This document shows positions 1,932 to 41,501 of a stretch of 43,477 nt of DNA, one piece after another. Made by a program: the position numbers and the translations under genes. This stretch comes from Candidatus Staskawiczbacteria bacterium (GTDB lineage: Bacteria; Patescibacteriota; Minisyncoccia; Minisyncoccales; Staskawiczbacteraceae), in the NCBI GenBank assembly GCA_903854535.1, contig CAINWR010000071.1:1-43477 (forward strand). The letters run 5' to 3'. The notes beneath the pieces were generated by a model, which was given only the letters and a program-made list of their open reading frames with translations, ran no database searches and had not been told where the DNA came from. Numbering within the stretch: the stretch's first letter is position 1; each line of letters opens with the position of its first letter.

Positions 1932-2225
1932 ATGGATTTTATAATCAAAAATATAAAAGACAATGCTTTAAATATTTCAAGAAGAATTGGTTATTTGATG
2001 CTGGGTGCAGAAAGTAGTAATGTTTATAATATTGTAAGAAAATTAACTGGTAACCATTATCCTAGGTTTCATATTTATTTAAAACAACAAGGCCAAGATT
2101 TTATTTTTAGTTTACATTTAGATCAAAAAGCTCCAGTTTATCAAGGAACTCACGCTCATAACGGCGAATATTTTGGCCCTGTAGTAGAGGATGAAGCAGA
2201 TAGAATTAAACAATTATTAAAATGA
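1932..2225 (+). CDS. Small hypothetical protein (97 aa)
   Basis: ORF packed 1 nt after the PBP2 stop and overlapping the next start (ATGA). Native AT-rich composition. No motif recognised. Confidence 0.5.
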   Translation: MDFIIKNIKDNALNISRRIGYLMLGAESSNVYNIVRKLTGNHYPRFHIYLKQQGQDFIFSLHLDQKAPVYQGTHAHNGEYFGPVVEDEADRIKQLLK

Positions 2226-2935
2226 TAACAGTATTATACGAAGATAATCATATAATTGCAGTGCAAAAACCTGCTGGAGTTTTGACGCAGGGCGATGGAT
2301 CTGGCGAAAAAAGTTTGATGGATTTTGTAAAAGATTATCTTAAAGAAAAATATAAAAAACCAGGAAATGTCTTTCTTGGACTTGTGCATAGACTAGACAA
2401 ACCAGTTTCTGGAATTGTTTTGTTTGCTAAAACTTCCAAAGGCGCCTCGCGTTTGTCTGAACAATTTCGTAATCATACAATACAAAAAACTTATCATGCC
2501 ATTGTGCTCGGCAAATTGAAAAATGAAAAAGGCCAAATAAAAGAAAAAATAAATAAAATAAGTTTTTTTGCCGAAGGTTTTGGAGAAAAATCTGACGAAG
2601 AATTATTGGCCGAAATTAAAAAAGCTACAAAAACTCGTACTGGAGAGCTTAGTTATAAAGTTGAAAGTTATAAAGTTCATAAAGATGGATCTGTTTATTC
2701 TTTGGTAAAAATTATGCCAAAAACTGGAAGATTTCATCAAATAAGAGTGCAGATGGCAGAAATGGGAAATCCAATTTTAGGAGATAGAAAGTATAGTAAT
2801 GTAAATATGCCAGATTGGAAAGATAATAATGCTATTGCTTTATGTGCTACTGATATTGAGTTTAAGCTTGCAACAAAAGATGAAATAAAAAAGATTTCTA
2901 TTGATTTGCCAGAATCTTGGCAAAAATATTTATAA
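2222..2935 (+). CDS. RluA-family pseudouridine synthase
   Basis: HRLDKPVSG catalytic-Asp motif, with FHQIRVQ and GDRKY downstream motifs typical of the RluA family. Confidence 0.85.
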   Translation: MITVLYEDNHIIAVQKPAGVLTQGDGSGEKSLMDFVKDYLKEKYKKPGNVFLGLVHRLDKPVSGIVLFAKTSKGASRLSEQFRNHTIQKTYHAIVLGKLKNEKGQIKEKINKISFFAEGFGEKSDEELLAEIKKATKTRTGELSYKVESYKVHKDGSVYSLVKIMPKTGRFHQIRVQMAEMGNPILGDRKYSNVNMPDWKDNNAIALCATDIEFKLATKDEIKKISIDLPESWQKYL

Positions 2936-3706: not shown

Positions 3707-3783
3707 GCTCGACAATAAATTTTTTCTGCGCCGAGAGCCTCTCTACGGGGCACCCTCGTGCTCGAAAAAATTAATTGTCTCGC
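3707..3783. repeat. Palindromic element (family C) in the SOD gene leader
   Basis: AT-rich outer arms (cgacaataaattttttc / gaaaaaattaattgtctcg) enclose a GC-rich core. It shares the 19-mer gcctctctacggggcaccc with 15543-15561. Confidence 0.8.
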
Positions 3784-3793
3784 AAACTTGCTT

Positions 3794-4456
3794 ATGGAAA
3801 AATATAATTTACCAAAATTACCATATGAATATAATGCGCTTGAGCCATATATGTCTTCGGAAGTTTTAACACTGCATCACACAAAGCATCATCAGGCTTA
3901 TGTGAATTCTGCCAATGATTTAAGTGCAAAGTTAGAAGATGCAAGAAAAAACCTGCCTGCCGGACAGGCAGGTAATTTGGATTTAGATTTTAAATCAATT
4001 TTAAAATCATTGTCTTTTAATGTGGCAGGTCATATTTTGCATGAAACATTTTGGAAAGTAATGGCTCCACAAAATTCTGGAAAAAATAATATTGAAAATA
4101 ATGCGCCAAAACTTTTAGAGCAAATAAATAAGGATTTTGGAAGCCTTTCCGCCCAAGGCGGACCAGCCTCGGGCTGGGATAGATTTAAAAAAGAATTTTC
4201 AGAAACAGCAAAATCAGTTGAGGGATCAGGCTGGGCTTTGCTAACTTGGCACAAAGAACATGGAAATTTAAATATAATTCAAGTTGAAAAGCATAATGTA
4301 AATCTTTATCCAGAGCAGAAAATTTTACTTGCTTTAGATGTATGGGAGCATAGTTATTATTTAGATTATAAAAATGATAGAGCTAAGTTTGTGGAGAATT
4401 GGTGGAATATTGTAAATTGGCAAGAAGTTGAGAAAAAATTTCAAAACTGCTGTTGA
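3794..4456 (+). CDS. sod: Fe/Mn superoxide dismutase
   Basis: N-terminus LPKLPYEYNALEP, plus HHTKHHQAYV, AGHILHETFW and DVWEHSYYLDYKNDR metal-ligand motifs. Start moved to ATG 3794 because the ORF-track extension only translates a repeat element. Confidence 0.9.
   Translation: MEKYNLPKLPYEYNALEPYMSSEVLTLHHTKHHQAYVNSANDLSAKLEDARKNLPAGQAGNLDLDFKSILKSLSFNVAGHILHETFWKVMAPQNSGKNNIENNAPKLLEQINKDFGSLSAQGGPASGWDRFKKEFSETAKSVEGSGWALLTWHKEHGNLNIIQVEKHNVNLYPEQKILLALDVWEHSYYLDYKNDRAKFVENWWNIVNWQEVEKKFQNCC
3951..3973. repeat. GC-rich palindrome inside the SOD gene coding sequence
   Basis: acctgcctg-ccgga-caggcaggt encodes LPAGQAG in frame. Confidence 0.7.
4149..4177. repeat. Two adjacent GC hairpins inside the SOD gene coding sequence
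   Basis: ccgcc-caa-ggcgg and ccagcc-tcg-ggctgg encode SAQGGPASG in frame, between the conserved DFGS and FKKEF segments. Confidence 0.7.
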
Positions 4457-8619: not shown

Positions 8620-8842
8620 GCCGTTTTTGTTTGTATGAAAAAAGGAGAAAGCGTCCTTTACAAATGGACATTCTTTCTCCCTGACTAGAAGCGAGATCGC
8701 TGTCGGTGAAGTGGCCCTATGCCACCTCGTTTTTTTCTGCGATCGCACAGCGCTAAGCTCTCTAGTCCTAATAATATATTTGCATATTTTAGTAAAAAAG
8801 TCAACAGTTTACGATATTTGCAAAGTTTGGTATTATAAAATA

Positions 8843-8905
8843 AGCGTTTAGCGTTTAGCGTTTAGCGTTTAGTTACTAAACCCTAGAACCTATACCCTAG
8901 ACCCT
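8843..8905. repeat. Heptad-repeat hairpin (family A): (gcgttta)x4, loop, then (ctaNacc)x4
   Basis: Read directly. The arms pair over ~29 positions with a C-C mismatch every 7 nt. On the sense strand 7 of 8 heptads begin with TAG or TAA. It ends 7 nt before the serS ATG. Confidence 0.85.
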
Positions 8906-8911
8906 CAAGAA

Positions 8912-15510: not shown

Positions 15511-15589
15511 GCTTGCCAAATCAAATTTTTCTGCGCGCCACGGCCTCTCTACGGGGCACCCGCGTGCTCGAAAAATTTATTTGGCTCGC
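15511..15589. repeat. Palindromic element (family C) in the ftsQ leader
   Basis: Outer arms gccaaatcaaattttt / aaaaatttatttggc. Same ttttctgcgc...gcctctctacggggcaccc...cgtgctcgaaaaa core as the SOD gene copy. Confidence 0.8.
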
Positions 15590-15600
15590 TTTCTTGATAA

Positions 15601-16419
15601 TTGTCATATAGAAAGCATCACGTAAAATCTAAAATAAAGAAATTAAAGCCGAAAAAATCTATTTTAAAAAATAAGTGGTTTTGGTATATAGCTTTAATTG
15701 TGATATTGTTTTTTGCAATTTCATATTTTTTATTATTTGCAAAATTTTTTAGTATAAATAATATTAATATTTCTGGAAATAAAGATATATCTACTGAAGA
15801 TATTTTTAAAATATCAAATAATAAAGTTAATAAGAAACTTTTTTCTTTAGGAAGTTGGCAAGTTATTTCAAGAAGTTTTTTTCTAACAAATCCAAATTAT
15901 ATTAAAGAAGAAATTGTTAATCAATTTCCTAAAGTAAATGAGATATTGGTTCAAAAAAAAATGTTTCAAACTTTGGAGATAGAAATTAAGGAGAGAGAGG
16001 CAAAAGCTATTTTTTGTAATAATCAGTTAAATAAAGATTGTTATTTTGTAGATAAAAGTGGAATTGCTTTTGATTTTTTGGAAACTTTACCAACAGGATT
16101 TTTTATAATAAGAGATGATAAAGAGGCTGTAGCTGGAAAAGAGATTGTTAATCAAAATATAATTGATGGTATTTTAAAGGCAAAACAAATATTAAAAGAT
16201 AATTATAATATAGACATTGAAGATGTTTTAATTACAACCCCACTTAGATTAAATATCAAAACCTCAGAAAATTGGCAGGTTTATTTAACAACTGATTCTG
16301 ATTTAGATACACAAATTACAAAACTGGATTTGTTGTTAAAGGAAGAGATTACAGAATCAGTTCGTAAAAAATTGCAGTATATCGATTTACGCTTTAAAGA
16401 CAGAGCGTATTATAAGTAG
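15601..16419 (+). CDS. ftsQ: FtsQ/DivIB-like cell division protein (TM anchor plus POTRA)
   Basis: Basic N-terminus and a single TM helix, followed by an INNINISGNKDISTEDI POTRA-like start. TTG start taken from the ORF track. Confidence 0.6.
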   Translation: MSYRKHHVKSKIKKLKPKKSILKNKWFWYIALIVILFFAISYFLLFAKFFSINNINISGNKDISTEDIFKISNNKVNKKLFSLGSWQVISRSFFLTNPNYIKEEIVNQFPKVNEILVQKKMFQTLEIEIKEREAKAIFCNNQLNKDCYFVDKSGIAFDFLETLPTGFFIIRDDKEAVAGKEIVNQNIIDGILKAKQILKDNYNIDIEDVLITTPLRLNIKTSENWQVYLTTDSDLDTQITKLDLLLKEEITESVRKKLQYIDLRFKDRAYYK

Positions 16420-16447
16420 GTTGTAGTTTGTAGGTTGTAGTGAGTAG
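16417..16447 (+). repeat. Five TAG triplets at exact 7-nt spacing, the first being the ftsQ stop codon
   Basis: tag gttg tag tttg tag gttg tag tgag tag, with TAG at 16417, 16424, 16431, 16438 and 16445. Confidence 0.9.
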
Positions 16448-16450
16448 CCG

Positions 16451-16547
16451 TCATTGCGAGGAAGTTGCAACTGACGAAGCAATCTCAAAGGTTGTTTTGT
16501 AATCAGCAGCTGGGATTGCTTCGGGTATTGCCATACCCTCGCAATGA
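16451..16547. repeat. Nested inverted repeat (tcattgcgagg...cctcgcaatga enclosing cgaagcaatc...gattgcttcg)
   Basis: Outer 11-bp arms at 16451-16461 and 16537-16547. Inner 10-bp arms at 16475-16484 and 16514-16523. Confidence 0.85.
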
Positions 16548-16570
16548 TAATTAAAATCGTGCAAGAGAAA

Positions 16571-16600
16571 AGCCCGTGTCCTTGTTAGAACGCGGGCTTT
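16571..16600 (-). terminator. Terminator of the GC-rich orphan gene 17208-16645
   Basis: agcccg...cgggct stem flanked by A and T runs. Confidence 0.6.
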
Positions 16601-16644
16601 TTGCATTTCTGCACTGAATCAATTGCCTTCCGTGGCAATGATCC

Positions 16645-17299: not shown

Positions 17300-17345
17300 G
17301 GGATTGTGAGCAGAATAAAATAATGATATAAAAAAGAATAAATGA

Positions 17346-17418
17346 GTTGAAAGTTTATCAAGTTTTTAAAGTTTATCAAGTCGACTTTATAACTTGTAAC
17401 TTTATAACTTGATAAACC
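17346..17418. repeat. AT-rich tandem-repeat hairpin (family B) ending just before the adk ATG
   Basis: Left arm has repeated aaagttt/atcaagt units, centre is gtcgac, and the right arm has complementary ataactt units. gtttatcaagtt (17353-17364) pairs perfectly with aacttgataaac (17406-17417). Confidence 0.8.
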
Positions 17419-19394: not shown

Positions 19395-19436
19395 GTTGTA
19401 ATTTTTTCTTGGTTTGTGGTAAAATTAATTATAATT

Positions 19437-19504
19437 AGCGTCTAGAGTATAGCTTCTAGGGTTTAGTCATTTTTTACTAAACGCTAGACGCTAAACGCTA
19501 AACC
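19437..19504. repeat. Heptad-repeat hairpin (family A), inverted orientation
   Basis: agcgtctagagtatagcttctagggtttag / loop / ctaaacgctagacgctaaacgctaaacc. Close to the reverse complement of 8843-8905. It ends 3 nt before the tpiA ATG. Confidence 0.85.
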
Positions 19505-25025: not shown

Positions 25026-25030
25026 CGAGT

Positions 25031-25102
25031 AAAAAGTTTGTAAAGTTATAAAGTTTGTAAAGTCGAACTTGATAACATTATAAACTTTTAAACTTTATAA
25101 CT
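25031..25102. repeat. Family B hairpin upstream of rpsM
   Basis: aaaagtttgtaaagttataaagtttgtaaagtcgaacttgataacattataaacttttaaactttataactt. Same architecture and centre (gtcgaac). It ends 6 nt before the ATG. Confidence 0.8.
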
Positions 25103-25108
25103 TATATT

Positions 25109-26624: not shown

Positions 26625-26634
26625 TTTATAATTT

Positions 26635-26694
26635 AACACTAGATTTGAGAGTCAAATCATGGTGATAAAAGCTTTGGCTTTTGACTCTAGTGTT
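26635..26694 (+). promoter_or_regulatory. Long interrupted hairpin between rpsD and rpoA
   Basis: aacactag pairs with ctagtgtt and agtcaaa pairs with tttgact (8 + 7 bp, with a 7-nt bulge). No T-run follows. Confidence 0.45.
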
Positions 26695-26704
26695 CTAAAA
26701 TATT

Positions 26705-35276: not shown

Positions 35277-35279
35277 TTA

Positions 35280-35352
35280 GTTATAAAGTTAAAAAGTTAT
35301 AAAGTTTATAAAGCCGACTTTATAACATTACAAACTTTAAACTTGATAACTT
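35280..35352. repeat. Family B hairpin upstream of mreB
   Basis: gttataaagttaaaaagttataaagtttataaagccgactttataacattacaaactttaaacttgataactt. It ends 3 nt before the ATG. Confidence 0.8.
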
Positions 35353-35355
35353 CGA

Positions 35356-36363
35356 ATGTTTAATAATAAAATTGCTATAGATTTGGGAACTTGTAATTCT
35401 ATTGTGTATGTTAAAGGTAAAGGAATTGTTTTATATGAACCATCGGTGGTTGCTGTTTCTTTGAGTGAAAATAAAATCTTGGCAGTAGGAGAGCAGGCAA
35501 AAGATATGATAGGTAGAACTCCTTCAGATATAAAAGTGTATAGACCTCTTAAAGATGGTGTTATTGCAGATTATAGAGTTACTCAGGCTATGATTAGGCA
35601 TTTTATAAGTAAAACTACAAGTAATTTTAAAATTTTTAAACCTGAGCTTGTAATTTCAGTTCCAGCTGGTATTACAAGCACAGAAAGAAGGGCTGTGATT
35701 GAAGCTGCGTTGTCAGCTGGAGCAAAGCAGGCTTACGTTGCCAAAGAGCCTATTTTAGCTGCTATTGGAGCTGGGGTGCCTATTAATTCTTGCTCAGGGC
35801 ACATGATAGTAAATATTGGCGGAGGTACCTCTGAGGTTGCTGTAATTTCTTTAGGGGGCATTGTGGCTTGTCATTCAGCTAGAGTTGCAGGAGATAAAAT
35901 TGATATTGCAATTGCTGAATACATAAGGAAAAAATATAATTTAGCCATAGGTACGCAGTCAGCAGAAGAAATTAAAATAAGAATAGGGACAGCTCTGCCA
36001 CAAAAAGAGCCTAAATATTTAGAAATTCAAGGTAGAGATTTAATATTGGGATTGCCAAGGAATATTAAAATTTCAAGTAATGAAATTTGTGAAGGAATTT
36101 CCGATGTTTTAGGTGAAATTATGCAATCTGTAAAACAAGTATTAGCTCAAACTCCTCCAGAATTATCAGCTGATATTATGAATAAAGGTATTATTGTTTC
36201 AGGTGGAGGAGCTTTGTTGGCTAGAATAAATGAACTTATTGCTCAAACCACTGGCGTACCTTGTTTTGTAGCAGAAGAGCCATTATTATGTGTTGTAAAA
36301 GGCACGGGAATAGTATTAGAACACTTAGAAGAATACAAGAAAGTTGTAATGTCTAAAAAGTAG
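35356..36363 (+). CDS. mreB: Rod-shape-determining actin homologue MreB
   Basis: IAIDLGTCNSIVY, NIGGGTSEVAV and VSGGGALL phosphate and adenosine motifs. Confidence 0.95.
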   Translation: MFNNKIAIDLGTCNSIVYVKGKGIVLYEPSVVAVSLSENKILAVGEQAKDMIGRTPSDIKVYRPLKDGVIADYRVTQAMIRHFISKTTSNFKIFKPELVISVPAGITSTERRAVIEAALSAGAKQAYVAKEPILAAIGAGVPINSCSGHMIVNIGGGTSEVAVISLGGIVACHSARVAGDKIDIAIAEYIRKKYNLAIGTQSAEEIKIRIGTALPQKEPKYLEIQGRDLILGLPRNIKISSNEICEGISDVLGEIMQSVKQVLAQTPPELSADIMNKGIIVSGGGALLARINELIAQTTGVPCFVAEEPLLCVVKGTGIVLEHLEEYKKVVMSKK

Positions 36364-36391
36364 GGTTTAGGGTAAAGGGTCTAGGGTCTAG
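36361..36391 (+). repeat. TAG-heptad array starting with the mreB stop codon; also a G3N4 x4 motif
   Basis: tagggtt tagggta aagggtc tagggtc tag, with TAG at 36361, 36368, 36382 and 36389. GGG tracts at 36363, 36370, 36377 and 36384. Confidence 0.9.
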
Positions 36392-36424
36392 AAAAAGTCA
36401 CAAAATAAATTGTGACTTTTTTTT
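36392..36424 (+). terminator. Terminator after mreB
   Basis: aaagtcaca-aaataaat-tgtgacttt followed by a T-run. Confidence 0.7.
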
Positions 36425-40723: not shown

Positions 40724-40751
40724 TGTGTAAGGTCTCACCTTACACAATCTA
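40724..40751. repeat. REP-like hairpin, copy 1 (10-bp perfect stem, ctc loop)
   Basis: tgtgtaaggt/ctc/accttacaca followed by atcta. It overlaps the transposase stop codon. Confidence 0.85.
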
Positions 40752-41473: not shown

Positions 41474-41501
41474 TGTGTAAGGTCTCACCTTACACAATCT
41501 A
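41474..41501. repeat. REP-like hairpin, copy 2
   Basis: Identical 28-mer to 40724-40751. Confidence 0.85.

Follow-up and report, generated by a model that had tools for sequence, protein, structure and literature searches.

Tandem arrays of heptamers next to stop or start codons have so far been reported piecemeal, from Xanthomonas, Nostoc, and Beggiatoaceae. Here we describe arrays of this kind in a 43,477-nt stretch of DNA from a Candidatus Staskawiczbacteria bacterium (assembly GCA_903854535.1, contig CAINWR010000071.1; the whole stretch is referred to below as the window), in which runs of TAG triplets spaced by 7 nt begin on the stop codons of ftsQ and mreB. Among the repeats with which they can be compared, the cyanobacterial STRR elements are heptamer arrays, while REP/REPIN and MITE-like repeats are imperfectly palindromic sequences of 70 to 140 nt, dispersed in both orientations, intergenic, and found beside stop codons. 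The GGGNATC and GGGGA(C/T)T heptamers of Xanthomonas and Nostoc overlap stop codons and occur preferentially as four units (Rehm et al. 2015, PMC4692102). TAACTGA repeats occur in sets of two to six copies, mostly immediately before start codons that lack a Shine-Dalgarno sequence, and a post-transcriptional role has been suspected for them (MacGregor 2015, PMC4679880). In Nostoc, TTTTGAA/TTCAAAA repeats lie near start codons or promoters in both orientations, and their deletion alters reporter output (bioRxiv 10.1101/2022.06.06.494920). The RNA-binding protein HutP recognizes two sets of three UAG triplets, about 20 nt apart, in one specific leader terminator (PMC2425495). Literature searches on repeat elements of the Candidate Phyla Radiation (CPR) or on the TAGTGAG array described below found nothing relevant.

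Both runs, first pointed out in an earlier note on this DNA, can be read directly in the sequence. The one after ftsQ (plus strand, 16417-16447) consists of the units TAGGTTG, TAGTTTG, TAGGTTG, and TAGTGAG and a closing TAG, that is, a 31-nt array of five TAGs, at 16417, 16424, 16431, 16438, and 16445. The one after mreB (plus strand, 36361-36391), also 31 nt long, is made of TAGGGTT, TAGGGTA, AAGGGTC, TAGGGTC, and TAG, with TAG at 36361, 36368, 36382, and 36389 and a degenerate third unit (AAG, at 36375). Two open reading frames (ORFs) end there, 15601..16419, which carries an FtsQ-type POTRA domain, and 35356..36363, which is MreB (E 9e-134), so that the stop codons of ftsQ and mreB are themselves the first TAGs of the two runs. 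The pattern TAGN4TAGN4TAGN4TAG matched seven times in the window versus 0.00 expected, with a maximum of 0 across 100 dinucleotide shuffles, and when the period-7 chains of all 64 trinucleotides were compared, the A/T-only triplets alone (AAA/TTT and AAT/ATT) stood above TAG. Neither run shows meaningful self-folding (for ftsQ, free energy [dG] -3.6, z score -0.4). The runs are genuine, far from chance, and recur well beyond both genes.

Four further TAG arrays are present in the window (8849-8872 and 19436-19466 on the plus strand, 8876-8899 and 19477-19500 on the minus strand), none of them at a stop codon. The four make up two inverted pairs, upstream of serS (8842-8906) and upstream of tpiA (19436-19504), each sitting just 3' of a -10-like hexamer. 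At serS, the left arm (8842..8872, plus strand) has AAG and four TAGs in TAGCGTT units and lies, by eye, 3' of a promoter-like TTTACG-N17-TATTAT, and the right arm (8876..8906), whose TAG heptads are read on the minus strand, stops 5 nt short of the serS ATG (8912). At tpiA, the left arm (19436..19466, plus strand), with five TAGs and variable spacers, begins right after TATAAT, and the right arm (19477..19504, minus strand) ends 3 nt before the tpiA ATG (19508). The serS element and the reverse complement of the tpiA element share a mean column identity of 87%, and no inverted repeat that an independent repeat finder reported in the window was longer than the one formed by these two (63 nt, arms 83% complementary). 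The two pairs are one quasi-palindromic element of ~65 nt in opposite orientations, which is why arm duplexes between the two loci (-44.7 and -36.9 kcal/mol) are stronger than those within them (-19.1 for serS and -24.2). The same relationship extends to the runs at the gene ends. The mreB run pairs near-perfectly with the serS right arm (-42.7 kcal/mol, z -7.5) and is therefore a solo copy of that element's other arm. The ftsQ run pairs poorly with the serS and tpiA right arms (z about -1.3 to -1.4) and can be aligned, unit by unit, to left arms that belong to full elements in relatives (L143:2729, L140:706, and L149:3948, where L numbers designate comparison loci). The view of the earlier note that the arrays have no complementary arm holds for the ftsQ and mreB runs only, as full copies of the family have one.

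We conclude that each run, which abuts its gene and shares the TAG of the stop codon, is probably one arm of a short quasi-palindromic repeat belonging to a family dispersed in intergenic DNA. In this organization, an arm would be a tandem array of ~31 nt, four heptads plus three bases, with five TAGs and 4-nt G/T-rich spacers in the main dialect, and in a full element a short loop would separate the left arm from a right arm that is imperfectly complementary to it. Full elements would occupy the normally tiny spacers between co-directional genes, beginning at or beside the upstream stop codon and ending a few bases before the next start codon, and solo arms would sit between a stop codon and an intrinsic terminator. 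Because every unit of this dialect opens with TAG and the gene directly adjoins the element, a TAG stop codon can also be the start of the first unit. The arrays would be transcribed as a 3' untranslated stretch from stop codon to terminator, and the solo arms of ftsQ and mreB probably have little or no sequence-specific function, being near-neutral 3' spacers before the terminators. Full copies could form hairpins of ~30 bp, weak and with mismatches at regular intervals, which would bring the upstream stop and the downstream start together and may influence coupling, processing, or mRNA stability between adjacent genes.

To describe the family, 80 mreB-centred loci of relatives (1.35 Mb) were surveyed together with the window. 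Heptad arrays dominate the non-triplet repeats of this set: Tandem Repeats Finder arrays numbered 107 at period 7, 73 at period 14, 45 at period 10, 40 at period 8, and 8 at period 6. Runs of at least four TAGs occurred 32 times at period 7, 14 times at period 9, and once at period 8, and none was found at periods 4 to 6 or 10 to 14 in the 1.35 Mb of related genomes. The length of the period-7 arrays had its mode at 31 nt (30 of 107; 4.4 units), with 53 of 107 at 30 to 32 nt, and the TAG runs of related genomes contained three units in 20 cases, four in 22, five in 15, and six or more in none. TAG or its complement CTA was found in only ~30% of the relatives' heptad arrays; the remaining ~70% use other dialects (AATTATC/ATTGAAA, ACAATTG/ATGTCAA, AAATCCG/TTTCGAA, and ATGTTTC), which differ between close species. 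The preference for 31 nt holds for A/T-only dialects too, and some dialects with a period of 8 or 9 nt keep the 31-nt arm, so it is arm length that is constant and not the number of triplets. The typical layout was a left array, a loop of 3 to 40 nt, and a roughly complementary right array ending 3 to 15 nt before a start codon. Copies are dispersed with unrelated flanks and in both orientations; thus, two copies in L144 are near-identical across about 140 nt with unrelated flanks, and the 31-nt arm AAATCCGAAGCACGAAATCCGAAATCCGAAA is identical in L134, L138, and L140, where it precedes three different genes. Spacer lengths at orthologous junctions tend to be of two kinds: many are about 0 to 25 nt, and many others are roughly 80 to 170 nt, the latter carrying a heptad element or some other palindromic element.

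The same architecture recurs in the window in a second dialect of AAGT/ACTT 8- and 9-mers. A periodic hairpin of this type (35277..35355, plus strand) fills the murA-mreB spacer, which measures 79 nt in the window versus 4 nt in the closest relatives, L129 and L130, from which the hairpin is absent. Sister copies with AAGT-type left and ACTT-type right arms lie upstream of adk (17345-17415) and of rpsM (25026-25108), and their arms are ~31 nt long despite the 8- and 9-nt units (17351-17381 and 25033-25063). A half copy of an AAGT-type arm (2649-2684), 92% complementary to 17384-17409, was also seen inside a pseudouridine synthase gene (2222..2935). At rpsM, the infA-rpsM gap left by the list of ORFs of at least 80 amino acids contains a 38-codon rpmJ (ribosomal protein L36; 24909-25025); the periodic hairpin lies between the rpmJ stop and the rpsM start, and unrelated dialects occupy that junction in L129, L134, L138, and L278.

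Comparison of orthologous loci showed that the arrays are dispensable, being gained and lost between close relatives with the proteins unchanged. The closest genome relatives by FtsQ are Candidatus Staskawiczbacteria (Patescibacteria/CPR), and FtsQ also matches lake-water metagenome contigs. The FtsQ C-terminus, ...RFKDRAYYK*, is the same in all relatives, with or without an array. In L003 (73% identity), ftsQ ends in TAG without an array and is followed by a different GC-rich palindromic element; L004 has no array; and in L005 (57% identity), a TAA stop is followed, from 7 bases on, by five in-register TAGs with other spacers (TAGAAAA/TAGAAAG). Likewise, the MreB C-terminus, ...VVMSKK*, is kept in about 40 Staskawiczbacteria-like loci with or without an array. 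L129 and L130 are both 96% identical to the window in MreB, yet only L129 of the two has the array: from its stop codon it reads TAGGGTC, TAGGGTC, TAGCGTC, TAGGGTC, and TAG, followed by a terminator as in the window, while mreB of L130 ends in TAA, with no array and a GC-rich palindromic element behind it. In L149, a full element starts on the mreB stop codon (TAGTGAT, TAGTTTG, TAGTGAG, TAGTTTG, and TAG), continues through a loop, and closes with a CTA-type right arm ending at the holB start; arrays of TAG/TTG heptads also begin at the mreB stop codon in L133, L138, and L145. With identical C-termini on either side of this comparison, the arrays neither truncate nor extend FtsQ or MreB, contrary to the truncation considered in the earlier note. 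Its suggestion that a repeat element at the gene end donated the stop codon is largely supported, both runs being copies of repeat arms, but needs one amendment: the stop was already in this position ancestrally, which means that the array runs on from it and leaves the protein its full length.

Nor do the arrays stand in for missing intrinsic terminators, an association that the earlier note had asked about, because both runs are followed by one. Directly after the mreB array, a terminator (36390..36423, plus strand; dG -14.4, z -5.4) leads into a U-run, in the same arrangement as in L129; at its base, the stem overlaps the final array unit. Downstream of the ftsQ array, a terminator-like hairpin with a T-run (16568..16602, plus strand; dG -21.3, z -5.0) is conserved in orthologous loci. 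The arrays themselves have no G+C-rich hairpin with a U-run and hence are not intrinsic terminators. Stop-anchored solo arms followed by intrinsic terminators were found in the window and L129 and, by eye, also in L139 and L145. Between the ftsQ array and its terminator lies a GC-rich palindromic element of ~100 nt (gtcattgcgagg...cctcgcaatga; 16448..16548, no strand assigned; dG -49.6, z -7.9), whose niche is held by a different palindromic element in L003.

Among spacers 50 nt or longer, heptad arrays were present in 111 of the 412 that separate two plus-strand genes (27%), in 6 of 79 between convergent genes, and in 12 of 93 between divergent genes. An array started between -4 and +12 nt from the stop codon in 41 genes, all on the plus strand, and before arrays TAG stops were modestly enriched (12 of 41 vs 216 of 1,336; odds ratio, 2.1; p = 0.03). 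Where a TAG array had the end of a co-oriented ORF nearby, the offset was exactly zero in 4 of 12; no co-oriented gene end was nearby for 26 of the 38 TAG arrays of the survey set, and of the six in the window four lie in 5' leaders, two of these on the minus strand. A TAA version (TAATTCC, TAATACC, TAATTCC, TAATTTC, and TAA) begins on the murA stop codon in L136. For annotation, these arrays explain many TAG stops and many "gaps" of 80 to 130 nt in otherwise compact CPR genomes.

The TAG arrays are not confined to this lineage. In scans of genome collections, in which gene context played no part in selection and all counts are among the matches listed, five TAGs at 7-nt spacing occurred in Cyanobacteria, Bacteroidota, Planctomycetota, CPR, and others. 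Outside the CPR, arrays reached up to 22 units. The dialect of the ftsQ run (TAGTGAGTAGTTNGTAG) was found in many CPR lineages, Bacteroidota, Selenomonadaceae, Endomicrobium, and more; at least four TAGs were in register in 110 of 131 of these matches, dominated by four (47) and five (46) units. Arrays of TAGTGAG/TAGTTNG (L209-L327) come from many CPR classes, from Bacteroidota that include gut Alistipes, Segatella, and Bacteroides, and from Selenomonadaceae, Endomicrobium, and others, and often have a CTACTCA/CTACCAA partner arm. In 37 of 118 of them (31%), the array supplies the stop of an upstream open frame of at least 80 codons, through unit 1 in 19 cases, unit 2 in 11, and unit 3 in 7. 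By a slightly different count, 67 of 116 lie directly 3' of a co-oriented ORF and 18 of 116 lie, as the complement, just upstream of an ORF on the other strand.

The closest likeness is to the heptamers of Xanthomonas and Nostoc (PMC4692102), which share with the arrays described here a 7-nt unit, about four units per array, a strongly noncoding and mostly co-directional position between ORFs, inverted pairs capable of forming stem-loops, and variation in length and sequence between close relatives; the same two placements account for 85 of the 116 pan-bacterial arrays among the matches listed. They differ in that the invariant core here is TAG and not a G-tract, with a potential for G-quadruplexes that is neither general nor conserved, that many A/T-rich dialects share the architecture, that the arrays are arms of multicopy elements with defined ends, and that the host is a CPR bacterium of about 31% GC. 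The TAACTGA repeats of Beggiatoaceae, Cyanobacteria, and Bacteroidetes (PMC4679880) are likewise stop-rich heptamers, intergenic and patchy across phyla. However, they represent a single dialect, almost all in forward direct repeats before starts, unlike the many dialects, inverted pairs, and solo arms after stops found here. STRR elements and the Nostoc TTTTGAA repeats are also tandem heptamers near starts or promoters in both orientations, but cyanobacterial arrays can be long, and neither a 31-nt limit on the arm nor paired arms have been described for them. With REP/REPIN and MITE-like repeats, the family shares a presence that varies between relatives and a niche open to different families, such as the GC-rich palindromes at 16448-16548 and in L003 and L130; unlike in those repeats, the arms are internally periodic tandem arrays, and no conserved terminal motif was found. 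New here are the CPR form, of defined elements with 31-nt arms occurring as full inverted pairs and solo arms, the turnover of these elements between close relatives, in which they fill about a quarter of the longer co-directional spacers, and the recurrence of the TAGTGAG/TAGTTNG dialect in many phyla, with four to five units commonest and the stop often supplied by the array (among the matches listed).

Several observations weigh against a dispersed repeat with idle solo arms. Of the 35 spacers of 50 nt or more that separate two minus-strand genes, just 1 contained an array, and a passively spreading element would not obviously avoid minus-strand genes. The mreB array is identical at 27 of 31 positions between the window and L129, versus 61 to 68% at synonymous sites of mreB (61% at 4-fold sites), and this conservation above synonymous sites hints at constraint on the arm. 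In four aligned left arms, TAG is invariant in all five units while the spacers vary, which plain repeat decay does not predict. No transposase, RAYT, or other mobility signature was found among the proteins of the window, and filled and empty murA-mreB sites, compared by eye, gave no clean target-site duplication. A search for RNA runs containing the window sequence found none, the matches being three DNA runs only, so that statements made here at the RNA level are inferred.

A broader role, which we consider unlikely, would make the 31-nt heptad module a widespread unnamed signal flanking stop and start codons, with a hairpin that terminating ribosomes open and that thereby licenses downstream initiation. 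The G/U-rich left arm, running from the upstream stop with stops in all frames, would mask the C/A-rich arm at the next start, and the module would be used a second time in the solo arms that precede terminators, where conserved machinery or another protein would read it. CPR, Bacteroidota, and Cyanobacteria are lineages reported to use Shine-Dalgarno sequences little, and if the fixed length and the stop/start position reflect a mechanism, it would bear on operon translation or processing in bacteria lacking these sequences. As for the hairpin, the inverted arms of the full copies in the window are able to pair (-16.3 and -25.6 kcal/mol; z -3.0 and -4.7). However, a strand test of five window elements and 63 array pairs gave no consistent advantage to the sense strand, the antisense folding better if anything, and pairing in cis was better in 16 of 27 elements and in trans in 10 of 27. 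Apparently swapped arms in the window, L146, and L144 are plain copies in opposite orientation. With weak folds and regular mismatches, no edge for the sense strand, and cis pairing not systematically better, a selected RNA hairpin is not demonstrated.

Growth in place by slippage, which would make the runs microsatellites extending from the stop codon and unrelated to the dispersed element, seems to us quite unlikely. Heptamers have been reported as over-represented in bacteria and attributed to polymerase slippage (PMC4692102); here the arrays begin exactly at the stop codon, and the units at the murA-mreB junction resemble the local gene end. However, length stops at five units in the relatives, while arrays elsewhere reach 22 among the matches listed, and a fixed arm of 31 nt is hardly accounted for by free slippage. 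Both runs are, moreover, homologous to arms of full elements elsewhere, and near-identical multicopy elements with unrelated flanks exist.

The main reading of the earlier note was a three-frame stop trap, an array selected so that ribosomes leaving ftsQ or mreB by read-through or frameshifting are halted within about 20 nt, and we now hold it to be very unlikely. The underlying claim, that all frames are stopped within ~20 nt, is essentially correct for ftsQ, where the next stops come after 21, 7, and 14 nt and closure of the three frames within 21 nt is the tightest in the window, and incorrect for mreB (12, 7, and 98 nt), where AAG in unit 3 leaves one frame without a stop for 98 nt. Many bacterial heptad dialects are indeed stop-rich, such as TAGTGAG (TAG plus TGA), TAGTAAT, and TAACTGA (PMC4679880), and the TAG of the array ends an upstream ORF in 31% of the context-blind sample (among the matches listed). 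Yet the in-frame back-up stop after ftsQ, at 21 nt, is no closer than the median of 24 nt for all 45 genes of the window, and three units would be enough where the arrays have four to five. The same arrays are also found in antisense orientation and in 5' leaders, positions at which they stop nothing; ~70% of the relatives' heptad arrays have no TAG; and arrays come and go between close relatives with the proteins unchanged. Three-frame stops are a geometric by-product of any stop-containing heptamer, and they would follow here from the 7-nt period of the repeat; a dedicated trap is not supported.

Equally improbable in our view is a binding platform, in which a HutP-like oligomeric RNA-binding protein would read UAG triplets set four bases apart and control the adjacent terminator or the hairpin of a full copy. 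The spacing is exactly that of the HutP recognition motif UAGNNNNUAGNNNNUAG (UAG-N4-UAG-N4-UAG; PMC2425495), of which at least three UAGs at four-base spacing are present here; TAG is invariant while the spacers vary, the unit number is fixed, and both solo arms abut terminators, with the last mreB unit reaching into the base of the stem. Unlike the HutP site, the arrays have five triplets, adjoin many unrelated genes on both strands, and have non-TAG sister dialects. The two-site layout of HutP is not matched either, since solo arms are single and lie in 3' regions and in the RNA the second arm of full copies has CUA. Other cores (AATTATC, ATTGAAA, ACAATTG, and AAATCCG) are found in most arrays built this way, dialects differ between close species, and the constant arm length across 7-, 8-, and 9-nt dialects, together with the dialects that have no TAG, argues against a reader that counts triplets. 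No HutP-like protein or other RNA-binding candidate was found among the proteins of the window. A promoter-like reading of the arrays had also been tried, as TAGNNT resembles the key -10 positions in the dialect of this genome; it fails for TAGTGAG and TAGAAAA and was dropped.

Slightly less credible still is an action in trans, by which 3' untranslated tails made of a G/U-rich solo arm and a terminator would pair with the C/A-rich right arms of leaders of the serS/tpiA type and open or mask them. The mreB arm does bind the serS right arm far better than the serS arms bind each other (-42.7 vs -19.1 kcal/mol), and the small-RNA-like layout of array plus terminator is conserved in L129, with conservation above synonymous sites. 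However, strong pairing in trans follows automatically from copies of one quasi-palindromic element in both orientations, and the ftsQ arm, as noted above, pairs poorly with both right arms.

Finally, it is extremely improbable that this is a repeat that forms G-quadruplexes, which has been proposed for the GGGNATC heptamers of Xanthomonas and Nostoc, a class with preferences for four units and for sites right behind stop codons, on the coding strand (PMC4692102): the mreB run does have four GGG tracts spaced by N4 (GGG-N4-GGG-N4-GGG-N4-GGG, a canonical motif), but the ftsQ array has none, the L129 orthologue breaks the pattern with GCG in unit 3, and A/T-only dialects share the 31-nt preference. 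The TAGGGTT unit of the mreB array is, incidentally, a rotation of the plant telomere repeat TTTAGGG; it is not kept in L129, and we regard the identity as a coincidence.

Beyond the heptad elements, no Rfam family matched at gathering score anywhere in the window, and four other features deserve mention. A 71-nt intergenic direct repeat, 80% identical between its copies at 3737-3807 and 15543-15613 (GCCTCTCTACGGGGCACCC...GTGCTCGAAAAA) and without an Rfam match, is very similar to the sequence after mreB in L131 and L148 and is either another dispersed element or a small RNA. Identical 28-nt sequences that bear a palindrome (TGTGTAAGGTCTCACCTTACACAATCTA), at 40724-40751 and 41474-41501, each lie just upstream of a minus-strand gene and look like a shared operator. 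The 80-nt spacer between rpsD and rpoA (26625-26704) contains a stem-loop (aacactagatttgagagtcaaatcatggtgataaaagctttggcttttgactctagtgtt) that is conserved in L129 and L130. The spacer has structure in most relatives as well and is a possible ribosomal-protein leader. The segment 31931-33836, with 25% GC versus about 31%, a flat GC skew, and two minus-strand ORFs without Pfam matches, may be acquired DNA.

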